64,000 nucleotides of DNA, from contig CAVTGX010000004.1 of NCBI GenBank assembly GCA_963734405.1, forward strand, positions 101,761 to 165,760. Reading direction: 5' to 3'. The stretch is from an uncultured Actinomycetes bacterium (GTDB lineage Bacteria > Actinomycetota > Thermoleophilia > Solirubrobacterales > 70-9). Positions 36,653 through 50,180 of the stretch are shown piece after piece (position 1 is the stretch's first letter; each line of letters begins with the position of its first letter). The notes below the pieces were generated by a model. The model saw nothing but the letters and a program-made list of their open reading frames with translations, made no database searches and was not told the origin of the DNA. A program made the position numbers and the translations under genes.

Positions 36653-36779
36653 TGATCCGGTGTTCCTTTCTCGCTTAACGGGCCAACCGGCACTGGCGAT
36701 GGATGCCAGAGCCGGCAAGGTGCCCCCCATTTGACGTGCCCGAAGCCTCGCGCCGCGGCCACGCGCCCACTACGTACAG

Positions 36780-37175
36780 GTGTCTAAAGATCGGGATCCC
36801 CTCTTCGCCCCAATGTCGGAAGCGCGCCCGCGAGCAGCCGATAACCTGCCCCGGATGCCTCTGGAGGAAGGTCACTGGCGGCGCTCGAACACGCCGCTGC
36901 GGCGCCTGACGCGACGCGAGCGAAACGTTGTGCTCGCCGGCCTGGCGGTGACCGTGGTCGCCCTGGCAGCCCTGCTCCTGGCCACCGCGGGCGACACCCA
37001 ACCCGCCCCCGGCCCGGGCTGCATCAGGGTCACGGTGGCCGGCCGCACGGGCGGGGAGCCGGTGCACGCCTGCGGCGCCGAGGCGATCGCAACCTGTAGG
37101 CAGGCCGCGAGGCTCGATGGTCCCTGGGCCGAAGCGGTCTCCGAGGGCTGCGCGGAGGCCTCGATCAGGCGCTGA
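36780..37175 (+). CDS. Hypothetical membrane-anchored Cys-containing protein
   Basis: One TM segment (VVLAGLAVTVVALAALLLA) followed by a small domain with 4 Cys. No family recognised. Confidence 0.4.
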   Translation: MSKDRDPLFAPMSEARPRAADNLPRMPLEEGHWRRSNTPLRRLTRRERNVVLAGLAVTVVALAALLLATAGDTQPAPGPGCIRVTVAGRTGGEPVHACGAEAIATCRQAARLDGPWAEAVSEGCAEASIRR

Positions 37176-37283
37176 GTCGACACCCTGCTTTGGGAGCGAA
37201 TTCGCACCCCGCCTCGACGCGATGCCCTCGACGCCCATTCGCCTTCGACGCTCACCAGCGAGCTTCAGTTTGCACAGCGATTC

Positions 37284-37313
37284 TTGACTTTAGAGCGACG
37301 CGCGACATACGAT
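37284..37313 (+). promoter_or_regulatory. Candidate sigma-70-type promoter for the 37348 gene
   Basis: TTGACT (37284..37289), an 18-nt spacer, then TACGAT (37308..37313), followed by GGGAGAGGAAA before the ATG at 37348. Confidence 0.3.
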
Positions 37314-37347
37314 GGTGCTCCGGACTTGAAGCGGGAGAGGAAAGCGC

Positions 37348-38019
37348 ATGTCAACGTGGATCGGGGACCGGACAGGCTCCAGAATGTCCAGGTTCTTGCT
37401 GGCGGTTGCGATGTCAGTCGCGGTCTGTGGCCTGGCGGCGGCTCCACTCGCCCGGGCAACCGACAAGCTGGCTGCGCCTGGGGCTGTGAAGGGTCAGAAA
37501 ACCACGATCACGGTGAGGCCAGACGGCGAAGCCGGATCGTTCGGACACCAGAGGCTCGAAGTCCTGCACAATGGATCCGTCACCTGTCGTGGTCTTGAAT
37601 TGAAGGGGGCCATTTTCGCGCGAGTCGTGGGACATGTCACCTTTGCGGCCATCGATTTTGGATCCTGCTTTTACCTCGGCAATCGGGCGCGTCTGAACAC
37701 GTCCTCATGTGACATTGTCATTACCAGCGGCGGCCTGGGGATGCTGACGAACCGTGAGAACGGGAGATGCGACCTTAGAATCGAAGTACCAGGCTGCACC
37801 ATCCAGTTGGGTAAGGGTCCGTTCCTCGAGCTTGGCTATCACAACGTGGGTTCCCCCTTTGAAACCACAGCGCTGACCGAACCAGCGGCGATCGGCGGCA
37901 CCGCCATCGGCATTGCCTGTCTGTCCTCCGGCCCCTCTGCGATCGGCCAGTACAAAGGATATCTACGCCTCTCCGCGTCGAGACACGGGAGGAAGAAACC
38001 CTTCACCGTCATTCTCTAG
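37348..38019 (+). CDS. Secreted hypothetical protein
   Basis: Signal peptide MSRFLLAVAMSVAVCGLAAAPLARA (internal Met at 37384 is the likely start). Cys-containing beta-rich mature part. Lower-GC gene. Confidence 0.5.
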   Translation: MSTWIGDRTGSRMSRFLLAVAMSVAVCGLAAAPLARATDKLAAPGAVKGQKTTITVRPDGEAGSFGHQRLEVLHNGSVTCRGLELKGAIFARVVGHVTFAAIDFGSCFYLGNRARLNTSSCDIVITSGGLGMLTNRENGRCDLRIEVPGCTIQLGKGPFLELGYHNVGSPFETTALTEPAAIGGTAIGIACLSSGPSAIGQYKGYLRLSASRHGRKKPFTVIL

Positions 38020-38281
38020 CTCAAGCGCCAGCTAACAATCCTCCGATGTGATCGGGGGTAATTCGCCACCCCCGCCAGCATTGTTCGCCGCGTAGAAGGA
38101 TTGAATTCACGCACAGTCCGCGTCCTTCGCTCATTAAAGCTTGACTACTAATTTAATCTGCGTATATCTCCCTGCCACCGATAGCTCGGAGGGCGACGAG
38201 CGTGGGTGCGAGCGGGGCATCGCTAGGGATCGCGCGGCGGGGCGCCGGGTACCCCAGTCAAGGGGGCCATAGGATTGCGCC

Positions 38282-38683
38282 GTGCCGTTTACGCTCAGGA
38301 ACCTCAAGGAGGACCTGGATGATGTCGGGTCCAACTTCGACGGCGCGCCGGAACTGGAGTTCCGCATGGCGACCAGGGCGCTCGAGCTCGAGCAATCCGG
38401 CCTGGGCTACCAGCGCGTCCCACCCGGCTATCGCTTTCCGTACGGCCACACGCACAAGAAGCAGGAGGAGGTGTACGTGGTCCTGGGCGGGAGTGGGCGG
38501 ATGAAGCTCGACGACGAGATCGTCGAGCTCAGGGAATGGGACGCGGTGCGCGTCCCGCCGGGTACGTGGCGAGGTTACGAGGCCGGGCCGGAGGGCCTCG
38601 AGATCCTCGTCATCGGCGCGCCCAATCTCGGCGAGGCTCCGCGCGAGGACGTCGAGGGCCAGCCCGACTGGTGGGCGGATTAG
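38282..38683 (+). CDS. Cupin-domain protein
   Basis: YGHTHKKQEEVYVVLGGSGRMKLDDEIVEL..DAVRVPPGTWRGYEAG is a typical cupin motif 1 / motif 2 spacing. Confidence 0.65.
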   Translation: MPFTLRNLKEDLDDVGSNFDGAPELEFRMATRALELEQSGLGYQRVPPGYRFPYGHTHKKQEEVYVVLGGSGRMKLDDEIVELREWDAVRVPPGTWRGYEAGPEGLEILVIGAPNLGEAPREDVEGQPDWWAD

Positions 38684-38717
38684 CACCAGGTGGCGACCGC
38701 TCCTGGCGCCGTCGTCC

Positions 38718-39884
38718 CTACACCCCCGCGTGCCCCTCGGCGATCCAGGCGGCGAGCAGCGGATCGATGATCCGCAAGCCCGTGGCGGTCGCCGCGTCCT
38801 CGGCGATCTCGCCACGATCGATCAGCGCCTCGACCGCCCTGCTCACGGCTCCTCCCCGCGAGCCCCCGTGCCGGCGCCCGGCGGCGTAGATGCCCTCGCG
38901 GTCGTCGGCGACTCCGGCGAGCACACGCCGCTGGGAGGTCGGCAGCGCCGACCAGGCGGCCCGCAGCTCGTCGCGAACCTCGCGCATCGCCTGGTCATAG
39001 GCGGCGAGCCAGGTTTCCTCGGTCGCCTCCTCCCCTTCGGGAGTCAGCTCCCAGAGGACGTGGGCGAGCAGCATCGTGCGCTGAGGGTGGCCGCCCGCCG
39101 TGTTGAGCAGCGGCCCGAGCGCGGTGCCGATCCGACGGTCGGTGGTCTCGAAACGGGACGCGAGGTGTTCGGCGACGTCGTCGGGTCGCAGCGGCGGCAG
39201 GTCGACCGGCCCCGCCTGTCCGTAGAAGGCGCGGCGGCGGTCGGAGAAAAGCTCGCGCATCATCCCGACGTGCGAGCCGGCGAATACGTAGCTGGCGGCG
39301 TCGCCGTGGTGCTGGATCTCGGCCCGGATCACGGCGTCGGCGCGCTCCTTGGCGGCAAGGATGTCCTGAAACTCATCGAAGATCACGAGCGTCCGCGTCC
39401 CGTGTTTCGCGTGGAGGCGGGCCGGCAGGGCGAGCCTCTCCACCAGCGGCGGCTCGGCCTGCGGATCGACGCTCGCCTCGACCCTGACCGGAACCGACCC
39501 CCCACCGACCCGGAGGGTGGGACGGAGCAAGCGCCGCGCCCCGGCGAACCAGGTCGCGAGGCGACCCTGAAGCTGATCGACGTAGGCGCGCTCGATCCGC
39601 TGCGCGATGTCGTCGAGCGTGAGGACGCCGAAGAAGTCCACGTAGACCGCCGCCCATCCTTTCTCCGCTCGCGCTTCCTCGGCCACCCGCGAGAGCAGAG
39701 AGGTCTTGCCGTATCGGCGCGGCGCCACAAGGCGGCTGTTGTTGCCGCTGACCGCTCGGCCCAGCAGCAGCGCCGCCTCTCGGTCGCGGTCGAGCAGCTC
39801 GTCGGCGGGGACGGGCTCGCTGTAGCGGAATGGGTTTCTGCTCTCTTTCATAGAGCTAGTTCGCTCGCTAGAATAGAGCATCAT
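38718..39884 (-). CDS. AAA+ ATPase of the Arch_ATPase (PF01637-like) type with C-terminal winged-helix-like tail
   Basis: Walker A APRRYGKTSLL, Walker B LVIFDEFQDI, sensor-like FAGSH. An alternative start (MKESRNPF) is at 39851. Confidence 0.6.
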   Translation of the reverse strand: MMLYSSERTSSMKESRNPFRYSEPVPADELLDRDREAALLLGRAVSGNNSRLVAPRRYGKTSLLSRVAEEARAEKGWAAVYVDFFGVLTLDDIAQRIERAYVDQLQGRLATWFAGARRLLRPTLRVGGGSVPVRVEASVDPQAEPPLVERLALPARLHAKHGTRTLVIFDEFQDILAAKERADAVIRAEIQHHGDAASYVFAGSHVGMMRELFSDRRRAFYGQAGPVDLPPLRPDDVAEHLASRFETTDRRIGTALGPLLNTAGGHPQRTMLLAHVLWELTPEGEEATEETWLAAYDQAMREVRDELRAAWSALPTSQRRVLAGVADDREGIYAAGRRHGGSRGGAVSRAVEALIDRGEIAEDAATATGLRIIDPLLAAWIAEGHAGV

Positions 39885-40240
39885 TTACCGAATTCCACAA
39901 GGGCCTGCAAGGGCGACACCTACATGCCTTCGTGTCGAGCTGCTTCAACAGTGTCCGTGACCTGAAGCCCTGGTCAAAAACTGGTGAGAGCGGGGGAACG
40001 ACTCGACCTTAGAAGCGCGCGAGCCGTGCCGATTGAATCCGCGCTGGATTTCGCTCCACAAGCGGGAAAGCGGCGGGTTCGATAGCCCCCGGCCGGAGGC
40101 TTACCAGAGCCGGCCCCGAAAAGTCGCCTTGATTTTCGCGCCCGGCGGGCTACGTTCGCTGGCCGAATAGACATAAGCGGCCCCCGGCGGCGGGCTAACG
40201 CCAACCGGGGACCTGACCACAAGGAAGGCAGAGCTCCCTT

Positions 40241-40537
40241 ATGGCTGACCAAGACCCTACGTGCCCGGCTACCGCCGCGCACGTCACTACCAATGCCGAT
40301 CTGGACGCTCGCGACCAGGCGGAGGTACTTCGCGAAGTCCTCGACATCTACCCGGAAACGCTGACGCTCGACGAGCTGGTACGGGAGCTGACCGTCGCCT
40401 CCGCCGAGTTCACCGAGCATGACCGAATCCGGCGAGCGGTCCGCGTCCTGACCGCGGGCGGCCTGCTCCACGGGATCGGCGACCTCATCCTCCCGACGAG
40501 GGCCGCCGTCAACTTCCACGACCTGCCCCGAGCATGA
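40241..40537 (+). CDS. Small (98 aa) hypothetical protein, possibly wHTH; translationally coupled to the next gene
   Basis: ATG start. Its stop overlaps the next start (ATGA at 40534..40537). LTLDELVRELT...IRRAVRVLTAGGLLH is winged-helix-like. Confidence 0.45.
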   Translation: MADQDPTCPATAAHVTTNADLDARDQAEVLREVLDIYPETLTLDELVRELTVASAEFTEHDRIRRAVRVLTAGGLLHGIGDLILPTRAAVNFHDLPRA

Positions 40538-41169
40538 CGGGCGCCAATGGAGGTGCCAATCCCGGCCGTGGGAGGGTGCGGCTGCTCGTCGCCCTCGATC
40601 TGCCAGACGTGGTGCGCCACAAGGTCGAGGTGTGGCAGCAGAAGGCGCTGACCGATCCGGCCCTGCGTCACAATCGCGGGCTGCGCATAGTCCTGATGTT
40701 CCTCGGCCACCGTCCCCAGCGGGAAGTCGTTCGCTACCTGGAGGCGATCCAAGAGCTGTGCGCATCCGCCCCTGCGCCCTTGGTCGAGCTGGGAGATGTC
40801 GTGGCGAAAGGCCCTGCGCCGGAGCTTCCTCGCGTGTTCGCCCTGCCGGTCAAGTCACCGGAGGCCAAAGTCCTCCAGATCGGTCTGCGCTCCGTCTTCA
40901 CCAACCAGGGCCTGTACATCTACGAACCCAGGGAGCGGACCTTCTGGCCGCACCTGACGGTCGCGAGGGTGCGGACCGCGGATCACAAGGCGCGCCGACC
41001 CGAGGCGGTTCACGACCTACCCGATCGCCCGATCCCTGCGAGCCTGCGCGGTCCCTTCGAGGGACGAAGCGTTGGCCTCTATCGGTCCGAAATGCGGCCG
41101 AGCGGAGCGCGCTACTCATTGCTGGGCAAGGCCGGCCTGCCCGGACCTACGTGGTCGAGTCCGACCTAG
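40534..41169 (+). CDS. 2H phosphoesterase (LigT/ThpR-like) with a degenerate first HxT motif
   Basis: RLLVALDLPD N-terminus. The first motif position reads LRIVLMFLG (the canonical form would be HxTLxFLG). The second motif is intact (FWPHLTVARV). C-terminal LYRSEMRPSGARYSLL. Confidence 0.6.
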   Translation: MTGANGGANPGRGRVRLLVALDLPDVVRHKVEVWQQKALTDPALRHNRGLRIVLMFLGHRPQREVVRYLEAIQELCASAPAPLVELGDVVAKGPAPELPRVFALPVKSPEAKVLQIGLRSVFTNQGLYIYEPRERTFWPHLTVARVRTADHKARRPEAVHDLPDRPIPASLRGPFEGRSVGLYRSEMRPSGARYSLLGKAGLPGPTWSSPT

Positions 41170-41478
41170 AGGCTCTAGCCGAGCCGCGAGCGTCGCGGCA
41201 TCGATTCGAAAAGGTCACCGCCATGCAAACGCTGCGACGGCCCGCGGCGGCCGGGGCGCAAGAACAGGTAGGACCGCCTGCCGTAGGCGTCACCCCCGGC
41301 TGGTTTATCTCAGTCAGGAAGAATGGTGCACTTGCTCGACCTACATGTAGGAAGTTGAGTTCGAGATCGAAACCCTAGTACTCCTTAGCGGGTCCAAGTA
41401 GCCCGGAGACTTCCATTGATCCTTGAGGACAAGACAGACATCCGCCTCGTTGGTGCCGAACTCCCACTTACTAAGGAG

Positions 41479-41892
41479 TTAACGCCAAACCGAGAACTTC
41501 TTAGTTAGTGGATCGAGGCGACTGGCTTCACCAAAGGTGGCCAGAGCGAGAAACTCGATCTCCTCGGCCGCAGTCTGTTTGGTTTGCTCCTGCTGTGCCT
41601 CCGAGCCTCCGCTCAACATCGTGTCGAGATACGCGGTACAAGGAAGGCCCTCTGTTTCAAGTGCGCTCTTGAGGTTCTTCATTTGTCCGCTGCCACCACG
41701 GAGAACGACTACAGACCAATCGCTTATGGATGGGTATTCGGTGCCATCCGCATCGATATAGGTGACTAGACTTAGATCACTAGAAGGTTGGTAGCTACCA
41801 CCAAGACCGAAGGCCACATGTCCGATCCCGGAAAGCATCTCCGACAACTCCCTCCGCTTGTTCAAGACGATAACGAACTTATGCGGCGTCAT
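41479..41892 (-). CDS. DUF2000-family protein (Pth2-like fold family, as I recall)
   Basis: KFVIVLNKRRELSEMLSGIGHVAFGLG..YIDADGTEYPSIS..VVVLRG..MKNLKSALE..LALATFGEASRLDPLTKKFSVWR matches my memory of the DUF2000 pattern. It overlaps the upstream gene by 14 nt. Confidence 0.55.
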   Translation of the reverse strand: MTPHKFVIVLNKRRELSEMLSGIGHVAFGLGGSYQPSSDLSLVTYIDADGTEYPSISDWSVVVLRGGSGQMKNLKSALETEGLPCTAYLDTMLSGGSEAQQEQTKQTAAEEIEFLALATFGEASRLDPLTKKFSVWR

Positions 41893-43510
41893 CTGTATCC
41901 TCCTGGTCCTTGTTGATTGACGTATTGTCTACGGGAGCATCCCGGCTATTGGCAGTTAGCAGCCTCCTGCTCAGGAGAAACCCCTGCGAAAAATCTGGTC
42001 CGTCTGGGTGAACCTGGAATCGATACACCTGGCGCTGGCCAAGGCGATAGTCGAAAAACGATCCTCCACGCACCGCCTGCACCCCACGGTCAGGGAAGAA
42101 CGTGCTAGTCCAGTGCCAGACGTTGCCAATGCCCTGGACCACGCCAAACGGGCTAGCGCCCTCCCTCTTTTCTGACACTGCGATTGGCGCCACATCTCTA
42201 TCCCAGCCATCAGTACTGATGTTCGCGAGGCGCGAGTCAGGTGGCTGATTGCCCCACGGATACTCTCTCCCGTCAACTCCCCGCACTGCCTTCTCCCACA
42301 TCTCCACGGTCGGCAACTCGGCACCGAGCCAAGCGCAGAATGCAGCCGCGCCGAAATAGTTGACGTAGGTAACAGGGTGATCCGCATATGTGTCGGCGAC
42401 ACTGAACTTGCCGCCAATTTCATTGATCCGGCACTCGTCCACCGGGGAAGAGCCATCGAGGTCGATCCAGGTCACACCGCCTTCACGGCGGTTGCCAAAA
42501 CAGTTGAGGAATACGCAGAATTGTGAATTCGTGATCGAGTAGCGGGTGATCCAATACTCGCCCAGCTCGAGCTCCTCGCCCTTGGGGCCAGGGCCAGATA
42601 CGAAAGGCCCTGCCGGAACTTGCACCAGCTCAAGGACCTCATCGCCCTCGGGCAATGGCAGCGACGCGACCAATAGCTCCCCGTCTCTGCGAGTACGCAG
42701 AGCGTGCCCATCGGCGCTGAGTTGGGCATCGCTGGAGAGGATCGCTTTGTAAGAGTTTCGCTCTGCGCGCAGCGCATCTACCTGCTGCTTCTGGCGGACG
42801 CTAGTCGCCTGCTGGACGCGAATTTCTGATTGCAGGCGCTTGGCTTCGTCGTCGAGGTTCTCGAAGAGCTCGATATTGTCAACGCTGGCCGGGGGGTCGA
42901 GAACGGCTTTCAGACGAAGATCACTGCTGAACAGGATCATCTTTTGGATCGCGTTACGAAGCGTCGCCTCCCAGTTGAGAGCAGACGTGTCGTAGGGAAT
43001 TAGGTTGATGTGGCGCAGATCCGAAGGGACATCCTCGATCTGCTGGGTGATCATGACCACCTTCTTGTTGACTGCGTGACAGAGGCCCAGCTCATACAGC
43101 ACGTTGGCGTTCGCACCAGTCATCTCGGCAACCACCAAATCAGCTCCCAATACCTGTTCCCAGATGGTCTGAATGAATGCTTGAGGGCTGAAGAGCTCGT
43201 CAGAGCGCACTGCATGGAAGCCAGCGTCAAAAACCGCTGGCTTGATGACTCCCTCGTAGTATTCGTTAAAGGGATCGATGAAGGGCATGATCACGAAGAC
43301 ATGACCGTTGCCGTTCTCCCCGTCCTCTGCGGGTTTGGAGCCTCTCGAAGTTGAAAGGGACTTACTCACCTCGTAGCGCTCCCGCCGAAGACTCGCCGGC
43401 AATTCGCGCTCACTCGGCCACTGGTCAACTACTGCGTCGATCTCTGCCAACCGTCGTTCGAGTTGCTCGGTGTCCAGACTGGGTTCCATCCCGTCCATAG
43501 CGCTCGTCAA
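41879..43510 (-). CDS. Fusion protein: nucleoside 2-deoxyribosyltransferase-like (NDT/TIR-like Rossmannoid) domain + coiled coil + FGE-sulfatase (SUMF1-like) domain
   Basis: NDT-like: HVFVIMPF..ADLVVAEMTGANANVLYELGLCHAVNKKVVMI. Coiled coil: LDDEAKRLQSEIRVQQATSVRQKQQVDALRAERN. FGE-sulfatase: HPVTYVNYFGAAAFCAWLG..EYPWGN..GNVWHWT..VRGGSFFD. Confidence 0.65.
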   Translation of the reverse strand: MTSAMDGMEPSLDTEQLERRLAEIDAVVDQWPSERELPASLRRERYEVSKSLSTSRGSKPAEDGENGNGHVFVIMPFIDPFNEYYEGVIKPAVFDAGFHAVRSDELFSPQAFIQTIWEQVLGADLVVAEMTGANANVLYELGLCHAVNKKVVMITQQIEDVPSDLRHINLIPYDTSALNWEATLRNAIQKMILFSSDLRLKAVLDPPASVDNIELFENLDDEAKRLQSEIRVQQATSVRQKQQVDALRAERNSYKAILSSDAQLSADGHALRTRRDGELLVASLPLPEGDEVLELVQVPAGPFVSGPGPKGEELELGEYWITRYSITNSQFCVFLNCFGNRREGGVTWIDLDGSSPVDECRINEIGGKFSVADTYADHPVTYVNYFGAAAFCAWLGAELPTVEMWEKAVRGVDGREYPWGNQPPDSRLANISTDGWDRDVAPIAVSEKREGASPFGVVQGIGNVWHWTSTFFPDRGVQAVRGGSFFDYRLGQRQVYRFQVHPDGPDFSQGFLLSRRLLTANSRDAPVDNTSINKDQEDTDDAA

Positions 43511-43531
43511 TGTGCTCGAATCGAAGGCTGA

Positions 43532-44329
43532 CTACGCGAACTGATAGAGAGGATGATTTGTATCGCGAACGCCGAGGAAACAGGCGGCCGTGACCCGTTC
43601 GCCACTCTTAACGCCGCGGACTCCATGAAGACGAGCCGCGTCAAAGGCGACTAGATCACCTTGACGGGGCGTTATTACGAAGGTTGGATCCCCCAATTTA
43701 TTACGATCGACACCGTAGTCAGTGCGCTTCATACGTTCATACTCCGACTCGCTCTCGATCTTGCCCCAGAACTCGATATCACCTCCCAATCCGGGCGGCG
43801 GGGTTGCTAGGTAAACATTGATGGCAATGCGACGTTGGAGCGAAAGGGAGGCGAGAATCGGCAGTTCGCGCTGGTCGATGTGAGGATTGGCATGTCCCCC
43901 CTCTACCCAACGCCTCACGATCCCCGACAGCATTGGCCTTGCCCCCTGTCGGGCGATCGTTGCCCCTGCCGGCCATGCCTCGTCGGCAAGCAATCGCACG
44001 GTATCGATCGGCGAGAGATATGGGCGAAAAAGCTGGGCGCGGATCGACTCACGCGTCTGCGGTGCCGTTAGAAAGTATTCCTCCTCATGCGTCGGCGACT
44101 GCTCCGCCTCTCCCATTGACGTACCAAGGCTCTGCAAGTCACTCGTCAATGAGTATTCGGAAGCATCACAGGCCTGACGTATCGCCGGCAGCACCGCCTC
44201 GCAGACATCGACTCCATAGAAGCCTCGGTGCCAGACGATGTCTAGCTTTCCTTGCGCCAAGGAAGCAACTGCTGGCGAGTCGAATACCTCGCCTACGTTC
44301 AGTTGGGCGCTCCCCGCTAGAGAGACCAA
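43532..44329 (-). CDS. 2OG-Fe(II) oxygenase superfamily protein
   Basis: HxD (NPHIDQ), distal His (ARLHGV) and RxT (GERVTAAC) at the spacing expected for the jelly-roll facial triad plus the 2OG-binding Arg. TTG start. Confidence 0.6.
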   Translation of the reverse strand: MVSLAGSAQLNVGEVFDSPAVASLAQGKLDIVWHRGFYGVDVCEAVLPAIRQACDASEYSLTSDLQSLGTSMGEAEQSPTHEEEYFLTAPQTRESIRAQLFRPYLSPIDTVRLLADEAWPAGATIARQGARPMLSGIVRRWVEGGHANPHIDQRELPILASLSLQRRIAINVYLATPPPGLGGDIEFWGKIESESEYERMKRTDYGVDRNKLGDPTFVITPRQGDLVAFDAARLHGVRGVKSGERVTAACFLGVRDTNHPLYQFA

Positions 44330-44569
44330 GGCCTCTCCGTTGAATTGGCAACGCTGTATCCCTCCATAAGGAGCGGCAGACTCTCAAACGATGATCTTGC
44401 TGTCAATCACTTAATCGCAATCTTCACATCCTGAACATAAATAGTTTGGTTTGTGGATAGCGTCCCTAGGGGCTTTTATGAAGGCGGGTACCCTCGCCGG
44501 GGTTCTAGACCCTTTCTCGCTCTTCTCGTTGCATCAGGTATACGCGCCGTACTAGGGTCACGCATAGTC

Positions 44570-46036
44570 ATGCCTACCCAGCCTCCGACAGACGAGTTCA
44601 TCGATGATCGGTCTATCGAAGAGAAGGCCGACGATCGCTTCCGCCACGAGGACGTGGTAGCCGAGCTAGCCCACCTTGTGGACAGCCGTGCGGCTCAGAC
44701 GAACATTGCTCTCTTCGCGCCGTGGGGAAGCGGCAAGACTGGCATCTCGAAGCTCCTCCGTTCGCGACTTGAAGATAAGAAAAAGGGACACCGCTATGTC
44801 TACTTCGACGCCTTCAAGCATCGCGATACGTCGCTGCGACGAAGCTTCTTGCGAACCGTTGCCGTTGGGCTCGACGAGGATCCTACCGAGATAGATGCAC
44901 TCTCCAAGGAGGAAATAACCCAGGAACTCGGCACCTCTGATTGGAAGCGCGTTGCAAAGTTCGTCGCCGGAGCCTTGGGAGTCGGCATTGTGCTTATGGC
45001 CCTCCTGAGTCTTGCCCTCGCATGGATTCGCCCGGAGGCCCCAAAGGAAAACTTTGGCGAGAGCTTTGTCCTGATGTTCACCAAGCTGAGCGGCGTCGCG
45101 ACCCTCGTCGCGGCCTTGATCGGCGTGGTTGTCAGCGGCCTGCTCGGAGGAGTAACGGCAACCCGCAAACAGATGCCGCTCTCTGAGGATGATGAGTTCG
45201 AGGACGCTTTCGGCAAGCTGGCAAAGAAGGCCGATCGACTCGTGATCTTCATTGACGAGCTCGACCGCTGCGCGGCCGACGAGGTGGTCGAGACCCTGGA
45301 GACGATGCGGGTTTTTCTCGATGTACCTAACTGCATCTTTATCGTCGCCGCTGATCGACAGGCGCTTGAGGCTGCGTTGCGACGAAAGGCTCGACAGGAG
45401 ACGCCCGCAGACGAAGTTCACCCTTACTTCAGTAGCGCAGGGGCCTACGTCGACAAGATCTTTCAGTTCCAGATCGCGCTGCCCCCTTTGCGCTGGACCG
45501 ATACGGGCGAGTTCGCCGAGAACCTCGTGAAGAATCGCGGGGGGCTCTGGAAAGAGCTACGAGAACGTGACGAAATGCAGGACGTTCTGACGGCACTGAT
45601 TCCCACCCATGTCACCAGTCCCCGTCGCGTCAAGGTGTTGCTCAACTCATATGTGATTGCCCATCGACTTGCTGAACGGCGCGCCAATGCAGAGGAAATG
45701 GCGGACCTATCAGGGCGCGCAGCGGCGCTCGCTCAGCTCGTCTGTCTAGGGGCTGAGTTTCCTCTCTTTGCAGATGAGCTTGAGCGTTTTCCCGAACTGC
45801 CCGCGGCTGCCTTGGCAGTCGCTGAGAGCAGCTACGAGAACAGCCTGCGCACCGAGGCCCCCGAGGTTTGGGAGCGTGCAGTCGACTTCATCGACCGGGG
45901 ACGACCCCTAGTGCCACTCCTCTATGGCAGGCGGGCAAACGGGGAGCAAGTCGAGAACAAGGTGGAATCGCCAGATGACGCGAACGACCCAAAGGACGGC
46001 GATGGTGACAGCACGCCTGAGGAGCCGCAGCAATGA
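44570..46036 (+). CDS. KAP-family P-loop NTPase with two transmembrane helices inserted in the NTPase domain
   Basis: Walker A FAPWGSGKTG. TM segments VAKFVAGALGVGIVLMALLSLALAWI and VATLVAALIGVVVSGLLGGV. Walker B LVIFIDELDRC..FIVAADRQ. The ORF-track start is 44453 (GTG); ATG at 44570 fits the family N-terminus better. Confidence 0.75.
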   Translation: MPTQPPTDEFIDDRSIEEKADDRFRHEDVVAELAHLVDSRAAQTNIALFAPWGSGKTGISKLLRSRLEDKKKGHRYVYFDAFKHRDTSLRRSFLRTVAVGLDEDPTEIDALSKEEITQELGTSDWKRVAKFVAGALGVGIVLMALLSLALAWIRPEAPKENFGESFVLMFTKLSGVATLVAALIGVVVSGLLGGVTATRKQMPLSEDDEFEDAFGKLAKKADRLVIFIDELDRCAADEVVETLETMRVFLDVPNCIFIVAADRQALEAALRRKARQETPADEVHPYFSSAGAYVDKIFQFQIALPPLRWTDTGEFAENLVKNRGGLWKELRERDEMQDVLTALIPTHVTSPRRVKVLLNSYVIAHRLAERRANAEEMADLSGRAAALAQLVCLGAEFPLFADELERFPELPAAALAVAESSYENSLRTEAPEVWERAVDFIDRGRPLVPLLYGRRANGEQVENKVESPDDANDPKDGDGDSTPEEPQQ

Positions 46037-48255
46037 CCGGCGGAGAGACCGGGATCGACGCGATTCTCGCCCGGCAGCGACAGGACCTGATTGCCTATCT
46101 GACCCGGGTCAGGAATCTCCCGGCGCCCACGCGGGACCTTGTCTTTATGCACAGCGAAGCTGGAGTCGCAAGTGGACTGGAGGCTGCCTCATCAGATCGA
46201 TTGGCAGCGATGGCGCGCAATGGTCAGACCGAGGGCCTTGGGGATCTACTTGACAAACTGCCAGCCTCCCAGCAGGAGGCTGCAGTCGCGACCCTTGCGC
46301 GCTGGTCTGGGATTTTTGCTCTCGCGCCAGAGCGCAAAAACGCGGTCACCGTCCTTCTCGCCGCTACCGCGGCGATCGGTGAGCTCAGCGCCGAGACGAC
46401 CGCGTTGGTTACTGGTGCCGTCCTATCATCCCCTGGCGACTTGCCAGCGGGAGCTCTCGGAGACATGGTCCGCCTCGCCCGACGTTGTCGACCGTCCCAG
46501 CGCAGCCAGCTAGTCGCGAAATTGAAAGAGCGAAACGATGTCGTAGAAGACTCGTCGGCCCGAGCCGCGCTTGTCGCGAGCTTTCCGGAGTTCAACAACG
46601 CGGACGATCTCTACGGCGTAGCGATGGCAATGGCGATCGGCCAGATTGACGGGGATGCCACGAAAGAACTCCTGACACTTCCTGAATCCGAGCAGGCAAA
46701 GTTGCTCAAACTTGCTGATCCCAGAGTGCAGGGTTGGATCAACGCAGCGCAGCAAAAAGCCAACAACCCGCCAGAGGGAGAGGAGCCTGAGAGCACCGCA
46801 AGCGTCAACGGATGGCTGTTGCCGGCACTCCAGGTTCTAGAAGATTCCACAATCGCTGTCACGAGATTCGCGATCTGGCTACTACGAGCGGAAAATCCCC
46901 AGTCCGACGCGGAGGTCCAGAATCGACTAAACCTGCTCGCGCCGATCAGCGAGCCTGAGCTACTGCGGCTGATGCTCCAGCGAATGCAGACCGTTCCTCG
47001 CGGAGACCGTGAATCCTGGCTTGAGGCAATCGACCGGTCCGCAATTAACACCGATGCTGTTGCAACACTCGATTCCGTCGCGAGGCAGGTGTGGAGCGAA
47101 CGGATAGCGCCCGAAGCCGACCCGGACAGCTTCGGCGGCATGTTGGATCGTCTCGCCGCCCTCTCAAAAGAACTCCCCGTCGAGGAGAGGAAGTTTCCGC
47201 AGGTCGACGCGGCGATTGGGGAGGCGACTCAAAACCCCATGCAGAGCGACGAGGCGGCGCAAGAGTTTCTCCGAATCTCAACCGCTGCAAATGAATTTGT
47301 AGATCATGAGTTGGCGGACACGACCCAGTGTGCCGATCGTTTTATCACCAGCGCAGCCTCAGCGATGGGTGTACTGCCAATAGGCGAGCTTGAACAGCTA
47401 CCGCAGTTGCGCTCCGCAGCTAGCCACCTACGACACGATTGGCTCTCTGACGCTTCCCCTGCGGCGCTTCAGACGCTACGCGAGGCAGCAACTCAGGAAC
47501 CCGAGGCACGACTCGACGCGACGAAGGCAGAGGCACTTCTCAGCGCCGTTGGTCGACTACGGGAGCAAGGCCAGGAAATTTCGTCTCCCCTTGACCCCAA
47601 CGCCGTCGGAGACCTTGGACGCGACTACGGTGACGGAGCCGACGGAGCGCTCATAGCCTGGCTGGCTTACTTTGACCAGGACGGACTCTGGTCTGTACTC
47701 GCGCCAATGTGGGGGACGCAGATATCACCCGCAGTAAGGCAGGGCTTTGAGACAGCCGCGAAACAGCTTCCGGAGCCCCAACATCAGAAGCTTGCAGAAG
47801 CCGCCTTCGATCAGAGCCTGAGTACCAGCGCACCACCCGCAGCGAACTGGGAGGCAATTGCACTCCCTGAGCTGAGCGGTAGCTGGGTGGTCAGGGCACT
47901 CGCCAAACGAAAGCCCGGCGAAGATCTCGAGCGTTGGCGGATTTTGCTGGAGATCGCGCGCCAGAGGGTCCTGAGCGGAAAAGCGAAGACGCTGGCCGCC
48001 AATGAACTCCTGAAACCGCTTGCGGCCCTTGATTCCGATTCCGCATTTGAACTTGCGCTCGGCAATTTGGAGCTCGCCAGTAAGGACAGTGGTGAAGAGA
48101 TGCTCGCCGGACTAGAACTGACGGGCGACCAAGCGCGCCTCGTCGAGGCCAAGGTCAAGCAGCTTGGCTGGAAGAAAAGTGCAATCTCAAGGCTCCTCGG
48201 CAGTCTCGTAGGCAGCGACGGAGAGCCTGAAAAAGACGAGTCCGAAGGAGCCTGA
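46033..48255 (+). CDS. 740-aa all-alpha (Leu/Ala-rich, repeat-like) hypothetical protein, translationally coupled to the KAP NTPase
   Basis: Its ATG overlaps the KAP TGA (caATGAcc). Uninterrupted ORF in the lower-GC region. No catalytic motif recognised. Confidence 0.6.
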   Translation: MTGGETGIDAILARQRQDLIAYLTRVRNLPAPTRDLVFMHSEAGVASGLEAASSDRLAAMARNGQTEGLGDLLDKLPASQQEAAVATLARWSGIFALAPERKNAVTVLLAATAAIGELSAETTALVTGAVLSSPGDLPAGALGDMVRLARRCRPSQRSQLVAKLKERNDVVEDSSARAALVASFPEFNNADDLYGVAMAMAIGQIDGDATKELLTLPESEQAKLLKLADPRVQGWINAAQQKANNPPEGEEPESTASVNGWLLPALQVLEDSTIAVTRFAIWLLRAENPQSDAEVQNRLNLLAPISEPELLRLMLQRMQTVPRGDRESWLEAIDRSAINTDAVATLDSVARQVWSERIAPEADPDSFGGMLDRLAALSKELPVEERKFPQVDAAIGEATQNPMQSDEAAQEFLRISTAANEFVDHELADTTQCADRFITSAASAMGVLPIGELEQLPQLRSAASHLRHDWLSDASPAALQTLREAATQEPEARLDATKAEALLSAVGRLREQGQEISSPLDPNAVGDLGRDYGDGADGALIAWLAYFDQDGLWSVLAPMWGTQISPAVRQGFETAAKQLPEPQHQKLAEAAFDQSLSTSAPPAANWEAIALPELSGSWVVRALAKRKPGEDLERWRILLEIARQRVLSGKAKTLAANELLKPLAALDSDSAFELALGNLELASKDSGEEMLAGLELTGDQARLVEAKVKQLGWKKSAISRLLGSLVGSDGEPEKDESEGA

Positions 48256-48326
48256 CCGTTTCCCTGCCGACTATATGGCGAACGAAGCTGCGCTCGCTCA
48301 AGCCGGGCGTCAACCACCAGGAGCAG

Positions 48327-49178
48327 GTGGACCACAACTTTGACGACGAGATAGTGGGCATCGGCTGGGGCATCGAGGCGCTGCCCGACGGCGCCTCCTT
48401 GACGGATGTTTTGACCGCGATCGGCTCCCAACCTGAATGGACCAAAGATGCGGTCCACACGGTTCGCCGCTTCGGCGAGGATGCCGAGATCGGCGACTAT
48501 ATTTGGACGCGGGACCTCCACGGCCGTTTCCGGCTTGGGCGCATCGCCGGGGGCTACCGCTACGAGAACACTGAGCTTGCCAAGCGCACCGACACCCATC
48601 AGGTACGCGACTGTGACTGGGCGAATCAGCCGCTCGGTGACCTTGAGGTGCCGGGAGCGGTCATCCGCGGATTCGCTGGCACCTCGACGAGCTTCAGCCG
48701 CATGTGGGACGAGGGCGCGCGCATTTACACGGCATGGCTTTGGGAGAAGCTGCACGGGCGCGACCCTGCTCCACTCAGCTTCACTTACCTGGAGGTTCTC
48801 CGGCAGCTTGAGCCCTACGATCTTGAGGATCTCGTCTACACCTGGATGCAGGTTGCCGAGGACTACCTCGCGCTACCGAAGGCGAGGCGAACCGATACCC
48901 CCGCCTACGAGTGGACGATGCTGAACCGCAAGACCTTTGCGCCGGCGATCGTCCAGGTGAAGTCGGGCAATCAGGCCGTCAACCTTGAGGCGCTCTCGGA
49001 CGCCGCACCCAACGCCGAAACCGTCCTGTTTGCCTGCTCGGCGAGCGGCCAGTTCACTGGGCGTCCGCCCAGAGAGATCCGCCGCATCTCGCCTACTGAA
49101 CTCGTCGACTTCGTGCACGAACACAAGCGCCTGCTCCCACCGCGTGTTCGCACCTGGTTCGAACTCGCGAAAAGCTAG
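48327..49178 (+). CDS. Mrr-like PD-(D/E)xK nuclease-fold protein with an uncharacterised N-terminal domain
   Basis: C-terminal half: LEDLVYTWMQVAEDYLALP..DTPAYEWTML..PAIVQVKSG (D..E..QxK arrangement). The N-terminal ..IVGIGWG.. domain appears to continue upstream (WRTKLRSLKPGVNHQEQ) of any canonical start codon. Confidence 0.5.
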   Translation: MDHNFDDEIVGIGWGIEALPDGASLTDVLTAIGSQPEWTKDAVHTVRRFGEDAEIGDYIWTRDLHGRFRLGRIAGGYRYENTELAKRTDTHQVRDCDWANQPLGDLEVPGAVIRGFAGTSTSFSRMWDEGARIYTAWLWEKLHGRDPAPLSFTYLEVLRQLEPYDLEDLVYTWMQVAEDYLALPKARRTDTPAYEWTMLNRKTFAPAIVQVKSGNQAVNLEALSDAAPNAETVLFACSASGQFTGRPPREIRRISPTELVDFVHEHKRLLPPRVRTWFELAKS

Positions 49179-49191
49179 GTAGCCCTTCAGG

Positions 49192-49818
49192 TTATATCTC
49201 GGCGCCTGCAGGAATCCAGAGAGCCTGCGTTGCTCGCGCCGTCGCCTCGATTGCCGCCGTTGATGCCAGCAAGTCCTCGGGCTTCATATCCTCGGCCCGG
49301 ACGATCTGCTTTTCCACTTCCTTCACCCGCTCTGGCGACACCGCCCCCGTCGCGGCATAGGCATGCTCGTGCCAACCCTCGGGCACGCACCCCGTAGGAA
49401 CTGCGGTCACGAACGCTCCAAACGCACAGGTGATCTCAGGTCCGATCCCGAGCACTTGCCAGCCCTTCTCGTCCTCGGAAACGTCGAGCCGGTTGTAGCT
49501 CAAGTGGACCATCTCCTTGCCGACGCGGCCCTTGACCCGCGAGAGCCGCACGGACATCGCAGGCGCCTTCCACTCGCCGACATAGTCGGAGGCGAGCGCG
49601 TCGGTGCCCTTCATCGGCTTGTCCCGCCAGAGGAAGTCGATCAGATTCCGTGAGTGGACCCCGAAGCTCTCCAGCAAGGCGTTCTCCACAATCGGGTCGT
49701 CCTCGTGGTGCCGGTTCATGAGCTTGACCGTCACCTCGTAGAGCATCCCGGCCTCGTAGAGCAGATGCTTCTCTGCGAAGCGACGCAAACGGTCCACTGG
49801 CGGGCGCTGCCGCGCCAC
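49192..49818 (-). CDS. Hypothetical protein (208 aa), convergent with the KAP operon
   Basis: Clean ORF with ATG start. No family recognised. Confidence 0.45.
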   Translation of the reverse strand: MARQRPPVDRLRRFAEKHLLYEAGMLYEVTVKLMNRHHEDDPIVENALLESFGVHSRNLIDFLWRDKPMKGTDALASDYVGEWKAPAMSVRLSRVKGRVGKEMVHLSYNRLDVSEDEKGWQVLGIGPEITCAFGAFVTAVPTGCVPEGWHEHAYAATGAVSPERVKEVEKQIVRAEDMKPEDLLASTAAIEATARATQALWIPAGAEI

Positions 49819-49941
49819 TACGGATCCCTGCCGTGCCGACCGGCACCGTCCCGGGGCTCGCCGCCGGCGCGAGGTTCGTTCTCCATTGTCATCACCTCAG
49901 CGTAGGGCCGCGGGCGGCTGCGAAATCTAAATTTTTGCCGG

Positions 49942-50180
49942 AAAACGCCGCCTCAAACGACGGATAGGTATGAGGCGAAAAATCGAAGACGATTCGCGAA
50001 TTGGGGGGTCCACTTTTGCTGCTCGGCCCCCTGTTGTTGTAGATGCGGAAATTCGCGACGCAAAACCACGCCTCAAACGACAAAGAGGCATGAAGCGAGC
50101 AGACCGACAGCGGCTGCGGCAAATGTCGGATTCGTCACACAAGACGGTCCACTTTCGCTGCTTCTTGCTCCGTATAGGTG
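49942..50180. repeat. Two tandem, diverged ~120-140-bp units, each with an internal hairpin (iteron/oriT-like)
   Basis: AAAACgcCGCCTCAAACGAC..AGGtATGAgGCGA (from 49942) recurs as AAAACcaCGCCTCAAACGAC..AGGcATGAaGCGA (from 50062). GGTCCACTTTtGCTGCT at 50007 recurs as GGTCCACTTTCGCTGCT at 50146. GCCTCA..TGAGGC forms a stem in unit 1. Confidence 0.6.

Follow-up and report, generated by a model that had tools for sequence, protein, structure and literature searches.

The 64,000-nucleotide stretch of DNA analysed here (the window) carries a minus-strand operon that we tentatively interpret as a new, horizontally mobile two-gene conflict module, probably directed against phage, in which a ligand-gated N-glycosidase effector is accompanied by a variable third gene. 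We place this reading slightly short of an even chance. The operon comprises three co-oriented minus-strand open reading frames, which code for a 2OG-Fe(II) oxygenase, a fusion protein of 543 aa and a member of the DUF2000 family. The first-pass annotation had described this three-gene operon, and the ORF coordinates and domain matches confirm it; all four of its domain identifications (2OG, NDT-like, FGE-sulfatase and DUF2000) also hold, that of the NDT-like domain with the help of structure and transitive evidence. The features are as follows.

43532..44329, minus strand: 2OG-Fe(II) oxygenase, hydroxylase-type, 265 aa, with H150-x-D152, H235 and R245-x-T247
41879..43510, minus strand: fusion protein, 543 aa as listed, consisting of N-terminal helices, a DRHyd (NDT/DNPH1-like) domain, a fixed-length helix and an FGE-sulfatase (FGS) domain
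43328..43510, minus strand: N-terminal helical region of the fusion protein, aa 1-61, with helices 14-28 and 39-56 in the model
42926..43309, minus strand: DRHyd / NDT-DNPH1-like Rossmannoid domain (N-domain), aa 68-195, predicted N-glycosidase
43091..43093, minus strand: E140 codon in YELG, predicted catalytic nucleophile, invariant and aligned to the DNPH1 Glu
42725..42883, minus strand: helical spacer of the fusion protein, aa 210-262, probably a coiled coil
41957..42643, minus strand: FGS domain (C-type-lectin-like), aa 290-518
41899..41904, minus strand: AGGAGG ribosome-binding site for DUF2000 within the 3' end of the fusion gene, as read from the sequence
41479..41892, minus strand: DUF2000 protein, 137 aa, obligate partner of the fusion protein

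The spacing originally given for these genes, a 21-nt gap followed by a 14-nt overlap, is correct for the listed starts, but the 21-nt figure probably is not the true one. The listed TTG start of the fusion gene at 43510 is probably too early; 22/22 homologues begin at the residue aligned to M8, and the catalogued form of the protein has 539 aa. The true start is probably M5 or M8 and, because the corresponding ATG codons lie at 43498 and 43489, the gap between the oxygenase and fusion genes is probably 33-42 nt. At the other end of the fusion gene, the 14-nt overlap and the internal AGGAGG, which lies 6 nt upstream of the DUF2000 ATG, indicate that translation of DUF2000 is coupled to that of the fusion gene.

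Domains of the fusion protein

The N-terminal helical region is poorly conserved (mean pairwise identity 29%), and in one homologue (P0029) a CHAT domain occupies the N-terminus, ahead of DRHyd-helix-FGS. The identification of the following domain as NDT-like would fail on Pfam alone, because Nuc_deoxyrib_tr (PF05014) scores 17.7 bits on the fusion protein, below its gathering score of 28.8. It is borne out by the relatives, the AlphaFold model and the profile alignment to DNPH1. PF05014 is matched by 50 of the 75 close N-domain relatives at E <= 1e-3 (best 3.6e-9). In an AlphaFold model (pLDDT 84, pTM 0.80), the N-domain has a Rossmann-like three-layer NDT/DNPH1 fold, and its best PDB fold matches are NDT (2a0k, 8qc0), DNPH1, BcmB and MilB (Foldseek E = 1.9e-6 to 4e-4, TM 0.57-0.67), at a sequence identity of only 13-23%. 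In the profile alignment, the AE..(x10)..YELG segment aligns with DNPH1 ADVVVAEVTQPSLGVGYELG, and YE140LG falls on GYELG, the Glu of which we take to be the catalytic nucleophile of DNPH1. E140 is invariant in 23/23 family members, its conservation is at least 90% in a wider set of 75 relatives, and it is predicted to be the catalytic nucleophile here. The NDT fold and the catalytic Glu, both singled out for checking in the first-pass annotation, are thus present, the fold matching NDT/DNPH1 and E140 being retained and aligned to GYELG. The other invariant residues of the domain are F72, I74, M75, P76, F77, R102, D104, E129, N134, N136, V137, L138, Y139, L141, G142, D164, L165, R166 and H167.

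Comparison with TIR domains gave mixed results. Neither Pfam TIR nor TIR_2 matches the fusion protein, the PADLOC "Effector TIR" model matches it weakly (3.5e-5), and SPARTA TIR domains appear among the fold matches of the N-domain (TM 0.64-0.69), ranked below NDT and DNPH1; its sequence motif is that of NDT/DNPH1 proteins. The N-domain is part of a very large family, with 25,903 cluster representatives matching at E <= 1e-3. Its closest relatives are fused, among others, to conflict-type partners (EAD7, EAD8, bacterial Death-like, CHAT, trypsin, NACHT, AbiJ_NTD5 and PNP_UDP_1) and also to the signalling domains response-regulator receiver (17/75), GAF and PAS, and relatives occur in the lysogeny module of Streptococcus prophages.

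The spacer that follows had been described as a heptad coiled coil. It is predicted as a single helix (residues 212-260), with hydrophobic residues at a fraction of 0.53-0.80 of the a/d heptad positions in the best register vs 0.31-0.51 over all positions, so that a single helix with hydrophobic a/d positions stands, while the coiled coil itself is only probable. The segment measures 53 residues in 21/23 members, at a sequence identity of only 22%.

The C-terminal domain matches Pfam FGE-sulfatase (PF03781) with 103.8 bits over residues 294-511, and PDB profile and fold matches back the fold, the biosynthetic proteins CalU17 and ToxD being among the closest structures. In FGE, the two copper-binding catalytic cysteines (human C336 and C341) follow the GGS motif. 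The profile alignment of the FGS domain to FGE ends before this segment; in the translated sequence, no cysteine follows residue 392, and the only invariant cysteines of the family are C360 and C392. The pair is absent, as the first-pass annotation had thought possible, which makes an FGE enzyme unlikely. An EgtB/OvoA/SenA enzyme is unlikely too, with no DinB domain detected by Pfam and scores of 49.5 vs a cut-off of 360 for NCBIfam egtB and 43.9 vs 420 for SenA. Because both the copper-pair cysteines and a detectable DinB domain are lacking, the FGS domain is probably a binding module rather than an FGE or EgtB enzyme. Its mean identity (63%) compares with 61% for the catalytic N-domain, it has a conserved Arg cluster (R481, R489, R493 and R497), and its C-terminal segment is nearly invariant across the family. 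A DGR-diversified FGS/CLec sensor is rejected on this near-invariance and on the finding of no DGR-type variable/template repeat pair in 36000-52000 of the window. Such conservation would be expected of an enzyme, or of a domain that binds a conserved small ligand, more than of one that senses variable phage proteins. TIR-, kinase-, KAP- and NACHT-FGS fusions also occur among the matches.

DUF2000, third genes and genomic context

The DUF2000 protein matches PF09391 over the entire profile (positions 1-133 of 133; 81.4 bits vs a gathering score of 25), and the profile of its clade matches PDB 2GAX (Atu0240, E = 1.1e-5), presumably classified with Pth2, the fold that the first-pass annotation had proposed for DUF2000. 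In 13/13 distinct loci, a DUF2000 gene adjoins the fusion gene or is separated from it by a single gene; their hosts range from 36 to 69% GC, and the two proteins co-vary (r = 0.82, Mantel 0/5000). This linkage is specific to the DRHyd-FGS fusion family: no DUF2000 gene was found within the flanks of the other retrieved N-domain loci or at the TIR-FGS loci examined. In other settings, DUF2000 recurs with PLP enzymes, as a fusion or as a neighbour. The literature searched yielded no mention of DUF2000, and the terms 2GAX, Atu0240 and PF09391 returned only unrelated papers.

The oxygenase matches Pfam 2OG-FeII_Oxy_3 (PF13640) with 38.9 bits vs a gathering score of 27, and the HxD...H...RxT triad reported for it is sound, H150, D152, H235, R245 and T247 being invariant in five orthologues. 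A WelO5/BesD-type halogenase, marked by HxG/A in place of HxD, is rejected: WelO5 gives a full-length match of 23.7 bits vs a gathering score of 27, and the motif is HxD. Orthologues precede the fusion gene in L004, L006, L089, L092 and L171. Counted over the loci, the oxygenase is present in 5/13, plus one fragment. Beside the pair, the other loci have a PLP enzyme, a B12-radical-SAM enzyme, a caspase-like peptidase or an unknown protein. The metabolic types of the third gene comprise the 2OG oxygenase, Cys_Met_Meta_PP and a haem-oxygenase-like protein, and a further type is B12-radical-SAM with a glutamine amidotransferase and an aspartokinase. Thus, the suggestion of a conserved trio survives for the DUF2000 linkage but not for the oxygenase, which is clade-specific, and the unit is therefore the pair with a variable third gene rather than a fixed trio.

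The DRHyd-FGS/DUF2000 module is rare and patchy across hosts of very different GC. The fusion family counts ~34 proteins in 5.8 billion, and, among 185,579 species genomes, only two Acidobacteriota MAGs and one Leptolyngbya carry its full-length form. In the window, the operon region forms a low-GC island (58-62% vs 72%), and GC3 of the fusion gene is 0.68 vs ~0.93 for host genes, a composition indicating that the operon was recently acquired horizontally. A KAP NTPase of the QatA/PifA/PDC-S20-like type adjoins the island operon. Homologous loci adjoin Avs2, caspase/CHAT genes and recombinases: a full-length Avs2 (1068 bits) ~600 bp downstream in L169; a PD-T4-6-like kinase and a serine recombinase in L006; a VMAP-type HTH with AAA_16, a kinase-TPR protein and a CHAT-TPR protein in L002; an RHS toxin and a weak SIR2_2 match in L001; and a Peptidase_C14 gene that immediately precedes the fusion gene in Leptolyngbya. 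This evidence is anecdotal, a count of ~5/13 loci without a background rate, and ordinary housekeeping neighbours occur at several loci. PADLOC-DB v2 gave no system-level match, hitting the operon only with generic Cas-associated 2OG and TIR effector models and leaving DUF2000 unmatched. The earlier statement that no described system has this composition therefore agrees with PADLOC and the literature searched.

Competing readings and known systems

The first-pass annotation had left the choice between an effector controlled by a sensor and a small-molecule pathway. The N-domain architecture network, the CHAT fusion, the caspase adjacency and the defence-island neighbours tip the balance towards the former, and the latter stays the main rival because DUF2000 elsewhere accompanies amino-acid-tailoring enzymes. 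The conflict reading further draws on the retained NDT fold and active-site Glu, the effector of Retron-Eco1 being an NDT-like N-glycosidase that hydrolyses NAD(P)+ (PMC12673091); on a domain order that obeys "effector at N-terminus, FGS at C-terminus", a strict syntax of conflict proteins (Kaur, Burroughs, Iyer, Aravind 2020, PMC7159879); and on the signs of horizontal acquisition together with the specific 13/13 linkage. Against it stand the strong conservation of the FGS domain, the metabolic types of the third genes, the PLP enzymes that DUF2000 joins elsewhere, the proximity of the FGS domain to CalU17 and ToxD, and the anecdotal neighbour evidence with its housekeeping genes.

In the mechanism that we propose, sensor and effector would be united in a single large chain. 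The C-terminal FGS domain, a C-type-lectin-like fold lacking the FGE copper site, would bind a ligand, and the 53-residue helix, probably a coiled coil, would keep the fusion protein oligomeric and relay the binding event. The NDT/DNPH1-like domain would then cut an N-glycosidic bond via Glu140 in an abundant nucleotide, which may be NAD(P)+ if the Retron-Eco1 effector is a guide, or a (deoxy)nucleoside monophosphate if DNPH1 is. DUF2000 would work together with the fusion protein, either as a regulator or neutraliser or as a hydrolase on the ribose-containing product, and the actinobacterial clade would add the hydroxylase-type oxygenase as an accessory. In this scheme, the role in defence, the substrate, the direction in which the signal passes and any DUF2000 activity are inferences.

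A small-molecule pathway of biosynthesis or salvage appears rather unlikely to us. Its NDT-like domain would free the base of a nucleotide in the manner of MilB, BcmB or LOG, and a small substrate would be bound or processed by the FGS domain, as happens in CalU17, ToxD or EgtB-type proteins; tailoring of an amino-acid- or base-derived intermediate would fall to the oxygenase, PLP or radical-SAM enzyme, and DUF2000 would be a pathway hydrolase or self-protection enzyme. The third gene, where identifiable, is always of a metabolic enzyme type, as this pathway would have it. The same holds for the DUF2000-Cys_Met_Meta_PP fusions (7 proteins), which adjoin a fatty-acid-desaturase-like protein in L003, L172 and L173, and for L001, where the fusion gene is immediately preceded by a desaturase-like protein of that family and a Cys_Met_Meta_PP gene of its own. 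L004 also has DUF2000 in a cluster with PALP, a methyltransferase and ornithine-cyclodeaminase, and a 228-aa gene of this cluster has its homologue in L006, immediately before the oxygenase. The high conservation of an FGS domain structurally closest to CalU17 and ToxD, the MilB and BcmB fold matches, and leuS, which in two unrelated loci is no more than ~2.5 kb away from the module, with an AlaX-like editing protein nearby in one of these loci, point the same way. However, the pair has no conserved association with a core biosynthetic scaffold gene (NRPS, PKS, RiPP precursor or transporter); only the fusion and DUF2000 are invariant, whereas the class of the "tailoring" enzyme differs between loci. 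Moreover, a fixed-length helical spacer and the swapping of a CHAT N-terminus are features of proteins in signalling or conflict rather than of pathway enzymes, neither of the known catalytic centres (FGE Cys pair, EgtB DinB iron site) is present in the FGS domain, and Avs2 and a KAP NTPase are among the neighbours.

Less likely still is a toxin-immunity pair, in which DRHyd-FGS would be a constitutively dangerous nucleotide glycosidase and DUF2000 its dedicated neutraliser, binding the toxin or reversing or removing its product, with the third gene irrelevant to the core. The gene overlap with its internal AGGAGG, the overlaps or short gaps in most other loci, the strict linkage and co-variation, the small downstream DUF2000 and the mobile, patchy distribution would suit such a pair. 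Yet DUF2000 is widespread in quite different enzyme-rich contexts, which is unusual for a dedicated immunity protein, another gene intervenes between DUF2000 and the fusion in L002 and L170, with DUF2000 upstream in L002, and the FGS sensor would have no role. We regard as improbable a housekeeping-type signalling enzyme that produces a nucleobase-type signal, as LOG does for cytokinins, upon an FGS-sensed metabolite and has no conflict role. Many N-domain relatives are fused to receiver, GAF or PAS domains, and the FGS domain is conserved rather than diversifying, but extreme rarity, patchiness and foreign codon usage would be unexpected of a physiological regulator, and the DUF2000 linkage and CHAT/caspase partners would go unexplained.

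Returning to the conflict reading, the fusion protein shares with published N-effector/C-FGS proteins the domain order, a DRHyd/TIR-class domain in the effector position, caspase/CHAT partners, and hosts in actinobacteria, cyanobacteria and other phyla. FGE-sulfatase-like domains also serve as sensors of defence-associated STAND proteins (PMC13581612). Unlike in those systems, there is no vWA-MoxR, STAND or GTPase transducer here, the 53-residue helix joining the domains directly, and the obligate partner is DUF2000, a term absent from PMC7159879 by term search. In contrast to the DGR-diversified CLec/FGE sensors described (PMC10907252), the FGS domain is not hypervariable and has no DGR. With Retron-Eco1 (Ec86) the fusion protein shares an NDT-superfamily domain, whose use as an anti-phage effector is shown there and proposed here; that effector, however, stands alone and is restrained by reverse transcriptase and msDNA, whereas here a helix-FGS fusion occurs without a retron, and the top 50 fold matches include no retron effector. 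TIR-FGS fusions such as P0087 have a similar layout, with a Rossmannoid domain, there of the TIR class, before an FGE-sulfatase domain, but match TIR_2 and have no DUF2000 neighbour. DNPH1/Rcl, the nucleoside 2'-deoxyribosyltransferases and the CMP N-glycosidases MilB and BcmB differ in being single-domain metabolic proteins. The FGE-sulfatase fold is common to the fusion protein, FGE (SUMF1), pFGE (SUMF2), EgtB/OvoA, CalU17 and ToxD; the fusion protein differs from EgtB and OvoA in having no DinB iron domain and from FGE in the missing copper-pair cysteines, in which respect it resembles the inactive pFGE.

Gene layout and domain composition

The three minus-strand open reading frames of the operon lie at the positions proposed in the first-pass annotation:

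Genes of the operon (window coordinates)
43532-44329, minus strand, 2OG-Fe(II) oxygenase gene (265-aa ORF)
41879-43510, minus strand, fusion gene (543-aa ORF)
41479-41892, minus strand, DUF2000 gene (137-aa ORF)

The 14-nt overlap between the fusion and DUF2000 genes is real and, together with an AGGAGG located 6 nt 5' of the DUF2000 ATG, within the fusion gene, argues for translational coupling of DUF2000. The 21-nt gap assigned to the oxygenase and fusion genes holds with the listed TTG start; however, this start is probably too early, since the starts of all 22 homologues align to M8 of the fusion protein and the catalogued version of the window protein has 539 aa. Given the in-frame ATG candidates at 43498 and 43489, the sequence makes a gap of 33-42 nt more likely. 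A promoter and terminator scan returned a site count not above that of shuffled sequence.

On Pfam alone, the assignment of the N-terminal domain of the fusion protein as nucleoside 2'-deoxyribosyltransferase (NDT)-like fails, with a Nuc_deoxyrib_tr (PF05014) score of 17.7 bits against a gathering score of 28.8, but it is rescued by the relatives, the fold and the alignment of the domain. A profile of the domain retrieved 25,903 relatives at E <= 1e-3 from 1.84 billion cluster representatives, and 50 of the 75 closest match PF05014 (best 3.6e-9). The best PDB matches of its AlphaFold model (pLDDT 84, pTM 0.80) are nucleoside 2'-deoxyribosyltransferases, DNPH1, BcmB and MilB, with SPARTA TIR domains slightly behind. 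In the profile alignment, ADLVIAEMTGANANVLYELG of the N-domain falls on ADVVVAEVTQPSLGVGYELG of DNPH1, which places E140, the Glu of the YELG motif, on the residue that we take to be the DNPH1/Rcl nucleophile, so that both the anticipated fold and its predicted catalytic Glu are present. E140 is invariant across the fusion family and at least 90% conserved among the wider N-domain relatives. The N-domain equates to DRHyd in the nomenclature of the Aravind group, a reading that fits the partners to which its relatives are fused (EAD7, EAD8, a bacterial Death-like domain, CHAT, trypsin, NACHT, AbiJ_NTD5 and PNP_UDP_1, as well as receiver, GAF and PAS domains). Five relatives, P0039 and P0041 among them, have an unusual architecture in which the N-glycosidase-like domain is joined to a Cpn60/TCP-1 chaperonin-family domain. 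The gene of another lies between cro and the repressor gene of Streptococcus phage Javan37 (locus L174, 3414-4109), a placement within the lysogeny module that recurs in several Streptococcus agalactiae prophages and is a typical site of prophage-borne defence genes.

In the full-length model, of moderate quality (pLDDT 72), a pair of N-terminal helices precedes the Rossmannoid domain, and one long helix (212-260) separates the latter from the FGE-sulfatase (FGS) domain. In the best heptad register, the a/d positions of the long helix are 0.53-0.80 hydrophobic, compared with 0.31-0.51 over all positions. Its sequence is weakly kept (22% mean identity), and 21 of 23 family members share a length of 53 residues, a constant spacing that suggests a rigid mechanical link between the DRHyd and FGS domains.

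The FGS domain itself is well supported by Pfam (103.8 bits, residues 294-511). True FGE carries a copper-binding Cys pair, and the proposed check of these residues shows the pair to be absent, as the translated fusion protein has no cysteine beyond residue 392. Pfam detected no DinB domain in the fusion protein, and its NCBIfam scores for the EgtB and SenA families are far under the cut-offs. Together with the missing Cys pair, this rules out a true FGE or EgtB enzyme. Structurally, the domain is closest to CalU17, ToxD, pFGE (the inactive paralogue), FGE and EgtB. Mean identity is 63% for the FGS domain and 61% for the catalytic domain, and DGR-type repeats are lacking near the operon; a diversifying DGR target is thereby ruled out. 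An anionic ligand is suggested by four clustered Arg residues that are conserved (R481, R489, R493 and R497). We infer that the FGS domain is a non-catalytic module binding a conserved, possibly anionic, ligand.

The upstream gene product matches 2OG-FeII_Oxy_3 (38.9 bits, Pfam), and the predicted triad (H150-x-D152, H235 and R245-x-T247) is kept in all five orthologues, which points to a hydroxylase-type enzyme. A halogenase is ruled out by the HxD motif and by a WelO5 score under threshold. Searching PDB sequences with the oxygenase yielded nothing useful. The proposed identity of the downstream gene as DUF2000 is borne out over its full length (81.4 bits, Pfam).

Distribution and the conserved fusion/DUF2000 pair

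The full-length fusion family is rare, with about 34 proteins among 5.8 billion. Of 185,579 species genomes, only 3 encode it, two of them Acidobacteriota MAGs and the third from a Leptolyngbya; the JGI metagenome collection contains it at three loci, two of which are near-identical. Phage or plasmid carriage was rejected, as 50,697 phage and 72,556 plasmid records contain no full-length match. Thirteen distinct full-length loci, with GC contents from 36 to 69%, were available for comparison.

Genes accompanying the fusion/DUF2000 pair in the 13 full-length loci and one fragment
Window, L004, L006, L089, L171 (split there) and the fragment L092: 2OG oxygenase upstream of the pair
L008, L009: upstream of the pair, a protein (about 430 aa) that contains the motif HVQAHDLCGH
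L001: Cys_Met_Meta_PP upstream of the pair, with a desaturase-like protein before it
L002: Peptidase_C14 upstream of the fusion; DUF2000 and a haem-oxygenase-like protein further upstream
L170: B12-radical-SAM between fusion and DUF2000; glutamine amidotransferase and aspartokinase downstream
L003, L169: nothing recognisable beside the pair
L091: only about 900 bases upstream, too short to show an upstream gene

All 13 of these loci have a DUF2000 gene next to the fusion gene or separated from it by a single gene, and pairwise identities of the fusion and DUF2000 proteins correlate (r = 0.82, a value reached in none of 5000 Mantel permutations). DUF2000 is absent from the flanks of all other N-domain-only loci compared, from L012, which encodes a short DRHyd-FGS protein without the helix, and from the TIR-FGS loci. 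Its linkage is specific to the helix-bearing DRHyd-FGS family, and a general partnership with N-domain or FGS fusions is ruled out. The trio described in the first-pass annotation therefore survives only in part: the DUF2000 linkage stands, but the 2OG oxygenase is found in only 5 of the 13 full-length loci plus one fragment, which rules out a fixed trio. Because the neighbouring gene varies between loci, the conserved unit is the fusion/DUF2000 pair, and the trio is its actinobacterial variant.

The L170 fusion protein carries an additional N-terminal CHAT domain. The protein of about 430 aa (L008 261-1595 and L009 4678-5964; 61% identity) lies directly 5' of the fusion gene, the position taken by the 2OG oxygenase in the window. 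It has an EEYYADTQ motif in addition to HVQAHDLCGH and no significant match in Pfam, NCBIfam or PADLOC; its only PDB match is short and marginal.

Genomic setting

The operon was acquired horizontally. Its region (window about 40000-50000) has 58-62% GC compared with about 72% for the genome, and the GC3 of the fusion gene is 0.68 versus about 0.93 in host genes. A Replic_Relax gene at 53306-53929, about 9 kb past the operon, suggests an integrated mobile element. The edges of the low-GC island carry no tRNA gene, the only one of the window being at 317-390.

Gene pairs flanking the operon
44453-48255, plus strand, KAP NTPase and 740-aa protein, genes overlapping by 4 nt
40241-41169, plus strand, 98-aa ORF and 211-aa 2H phosphoesterase, 4-nt overlap, convergent with the DUF2000 gene

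Divergent from the operon lies the gene of a KAP-family P-loop NTPase of 527 aa resembling QatA, PifA and PDC-S20 (E about 1e-20 to 1e-25), and the 740-aa protein has no family match; the two may form a separate two-gene defence candidate. The 98-aa ORF weakly matches an MmyB ligand-binding domain, and the 211-aa protein is a LigT/RNA 2',3'-cyclic phosphodiesterase (TIGR02258 E = 4.6e-14, below cut-off). Using phmmer, no homologue of the KAP NTPase, the 740-aa protein, LigT or an AAA ATPase was found in 168 compared loci. Since these neighbours do not recur, they are ruled out as parts of the module. A direct repeat of 50 nt occurs twice at 49929-50098 (76% identity, copies 120 nt apart); the first copy extends to the listed start of an unannotated 550-aa ORF (49970-51622), and the second is just inside it.

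At other loci, genes of a conflict or mobile type border the module: an antiviral STAND gene for full-length Avs2 (L169 3143-7675; PADLOC 1068 bits) about 600 bp downstream of the pair, a PD-T4-6-like kinase and a serine recombinase in L006, a VMAP-type HTH with AAA_16, a kinase-TPR protein and a CHAT-TPR protein in L002, and an RHS toxin in L001.

Conflict module or small-molecule pathway, and the role of DUF2000

We tentatively read the operon as a conflict module, with confidence falling slightly short of even. As a plausible mechanism, the FGS domain would bind its ligand, the fixed helix would hold and couple an oligomer, and the DRHyd domain would then cut NAD(P)+ or a (deoxy)nucleotide via E140. 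The analysis shows what the proteins are composed of and how they fold, that E140 is retained and the FGE cysteines are lost, that the pair is linked and co-varies, that it was acquired horizontally, and which genes surround it; the remaining steps are inferred from comparative evidence. The effector role follows the precedent of Retron-Eco1, whose NDT-like N-glycosidase effector hydrolyses NAD(P)+ (PMC12673091), and the architecture has precedents in the "N-terminal effector, C-terminal FGS" syntax of conflict proteins (PMC7159879) and in the FGE-like sensors of defence-associated STAND proteins (PMC13581612). A small-molecule pathway is the unlikely but serious rival. It would account for the repeated fusion of DUF2000 to Cys_Met_Meta_PP beside a desaturase-like protein, for the presence of DUF2000 within a PALP, methyltransferase and ornithine-cyclodeaminase cluster, and for the identifiable third genes, which encode metabolic enzymes except in L002, where the product is a caspase-like peptidase. 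An FGS domain that is conserved, not diversifying, and has CalU17 and ToxD as its closest structures also favours a pathway, as does the presence of leuS no more than about 2.5 kb away in two loci with LeuRS proteins of only 44% identity. However, the pair lacks a conserved scaffold gene, the class of tailoring enzyme differs between loci, the FGS domain has neither known catalytic centre of the FGE fold, and the helix and CHAT swap resemble signalling or conflict design.

Among known systems, the module comes closest to effector-FGS proteins, a class of predicted conflict proteins, and to NDT-like/TIR-like nucleotide glycosidase effectors. In contrast to these, the module joins its two domains by a helix, has no NTPase transducer and no variability in its FGS domain, and combines an obligate DUF2000 partner with a third position open to swappable oxidative, PLP or peptidase genes. 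In line with the earlier statement that no described system of this composition is known, PADLOC gives no matching system for the operon. If the module serves defence, it would represent a compact sensor-effector design, with an FGS domain wired by a fixed helix to an NDT-type N-glycosidase, the second case after Retron-Eco1 of an NDT-like domain as immune effector, a case in which the ligands sensed by non-catalytic FGE-like domains could be tested, and the first functional handle on DUF2000, a family with a solved structure. If metabolic, it would indicate that a nucleotide glycosidase, an FGE-like protein and amino-acid-tailoring enzymes are connected by chemistry not yet known.

The role of DUF2000 is the weak point of the module interpretation. 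Its only anchor is PDB 2GAX, which is presumably classified with Pth2, and the literature searched yielded no mention of the family, with queries for Atu0240, 2GAX and PF09391 giving unrelated papers only. DUF2000 could regulate or neutralise the fusion protein or, equally, serve as an ester hydrolase for a ribose-linked product. In a far more speculative and rather improbable scheme, it would be a new enzymatic or ligand-sensing part coupling nucleotide N-glycosidase immunity to amino-acid or aminoacyl-tRNA chemistry, e.g., as a Pth2-like ester hydrolase on aminoacyl-/acyl-ribose or charged tRNA, with the swappable oxidative/PLP enzymes making or destroying a modified amino-acid/nucleotide metabolite as a defence; the DUF2000-Cys_Met_Meta_PP fusions, their desaturase-like partner and the leuS/AlaX adjacency in two loci would then belong to one larger undescribed family of systems.

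A fatty-acid-desaturase-like protein (about 400-470 aa) followed by a DUF2000-Cys_Met_Meta_PP fusion recurs among the compared loci and appears to be an undescribed module:

Desaturase-like/Cys_Met_Meta_PP pairs
L003 11704-14860, desaturase-like protein and DUF2000-Cys_Met_Meta_PP
L172 5488-8644, desaturase-like protein and DUF2000-Cys_Met_Meta_PP
L173 2607-5668, desaturase-like protein and DUF2000-Cys_Met_Meta_PP
L001 5265-7997, desaturase-like protein and Cys_Met_Meta_PP, here a separate gene

Neighbours of the L173 pair include an integrase fragment as well as Pepco and CHAT genes. Two unrelated loci (L008 4948-7392 and L171 8243-10702) carry a full-score bacterial leuS at a distance of 1.2-2 kb from DUF2000, and L171 also encodes an AlaX-like editing protein (2642-3343); the leuS placement could reflect chance, an insertion hot spot, or a link of DUF2000 to aminoacyl-tRNA. 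In L008, a second, divergent DUF2000-like gene (3770-4267; Pfam E = 1.5e-4) directly follows the first. In L004 (13264-17099), a second DUF2000 gene clusters with a 228-aa protein, a PALP enzyme, a methyltransferase and an ornithine cyclodeaminase, a cluster that we take to be SbnA/SbnB-like, and the 228-aa protein has a homologue in L006, encoded immediately 5' of the 2OG oxygenase gene.
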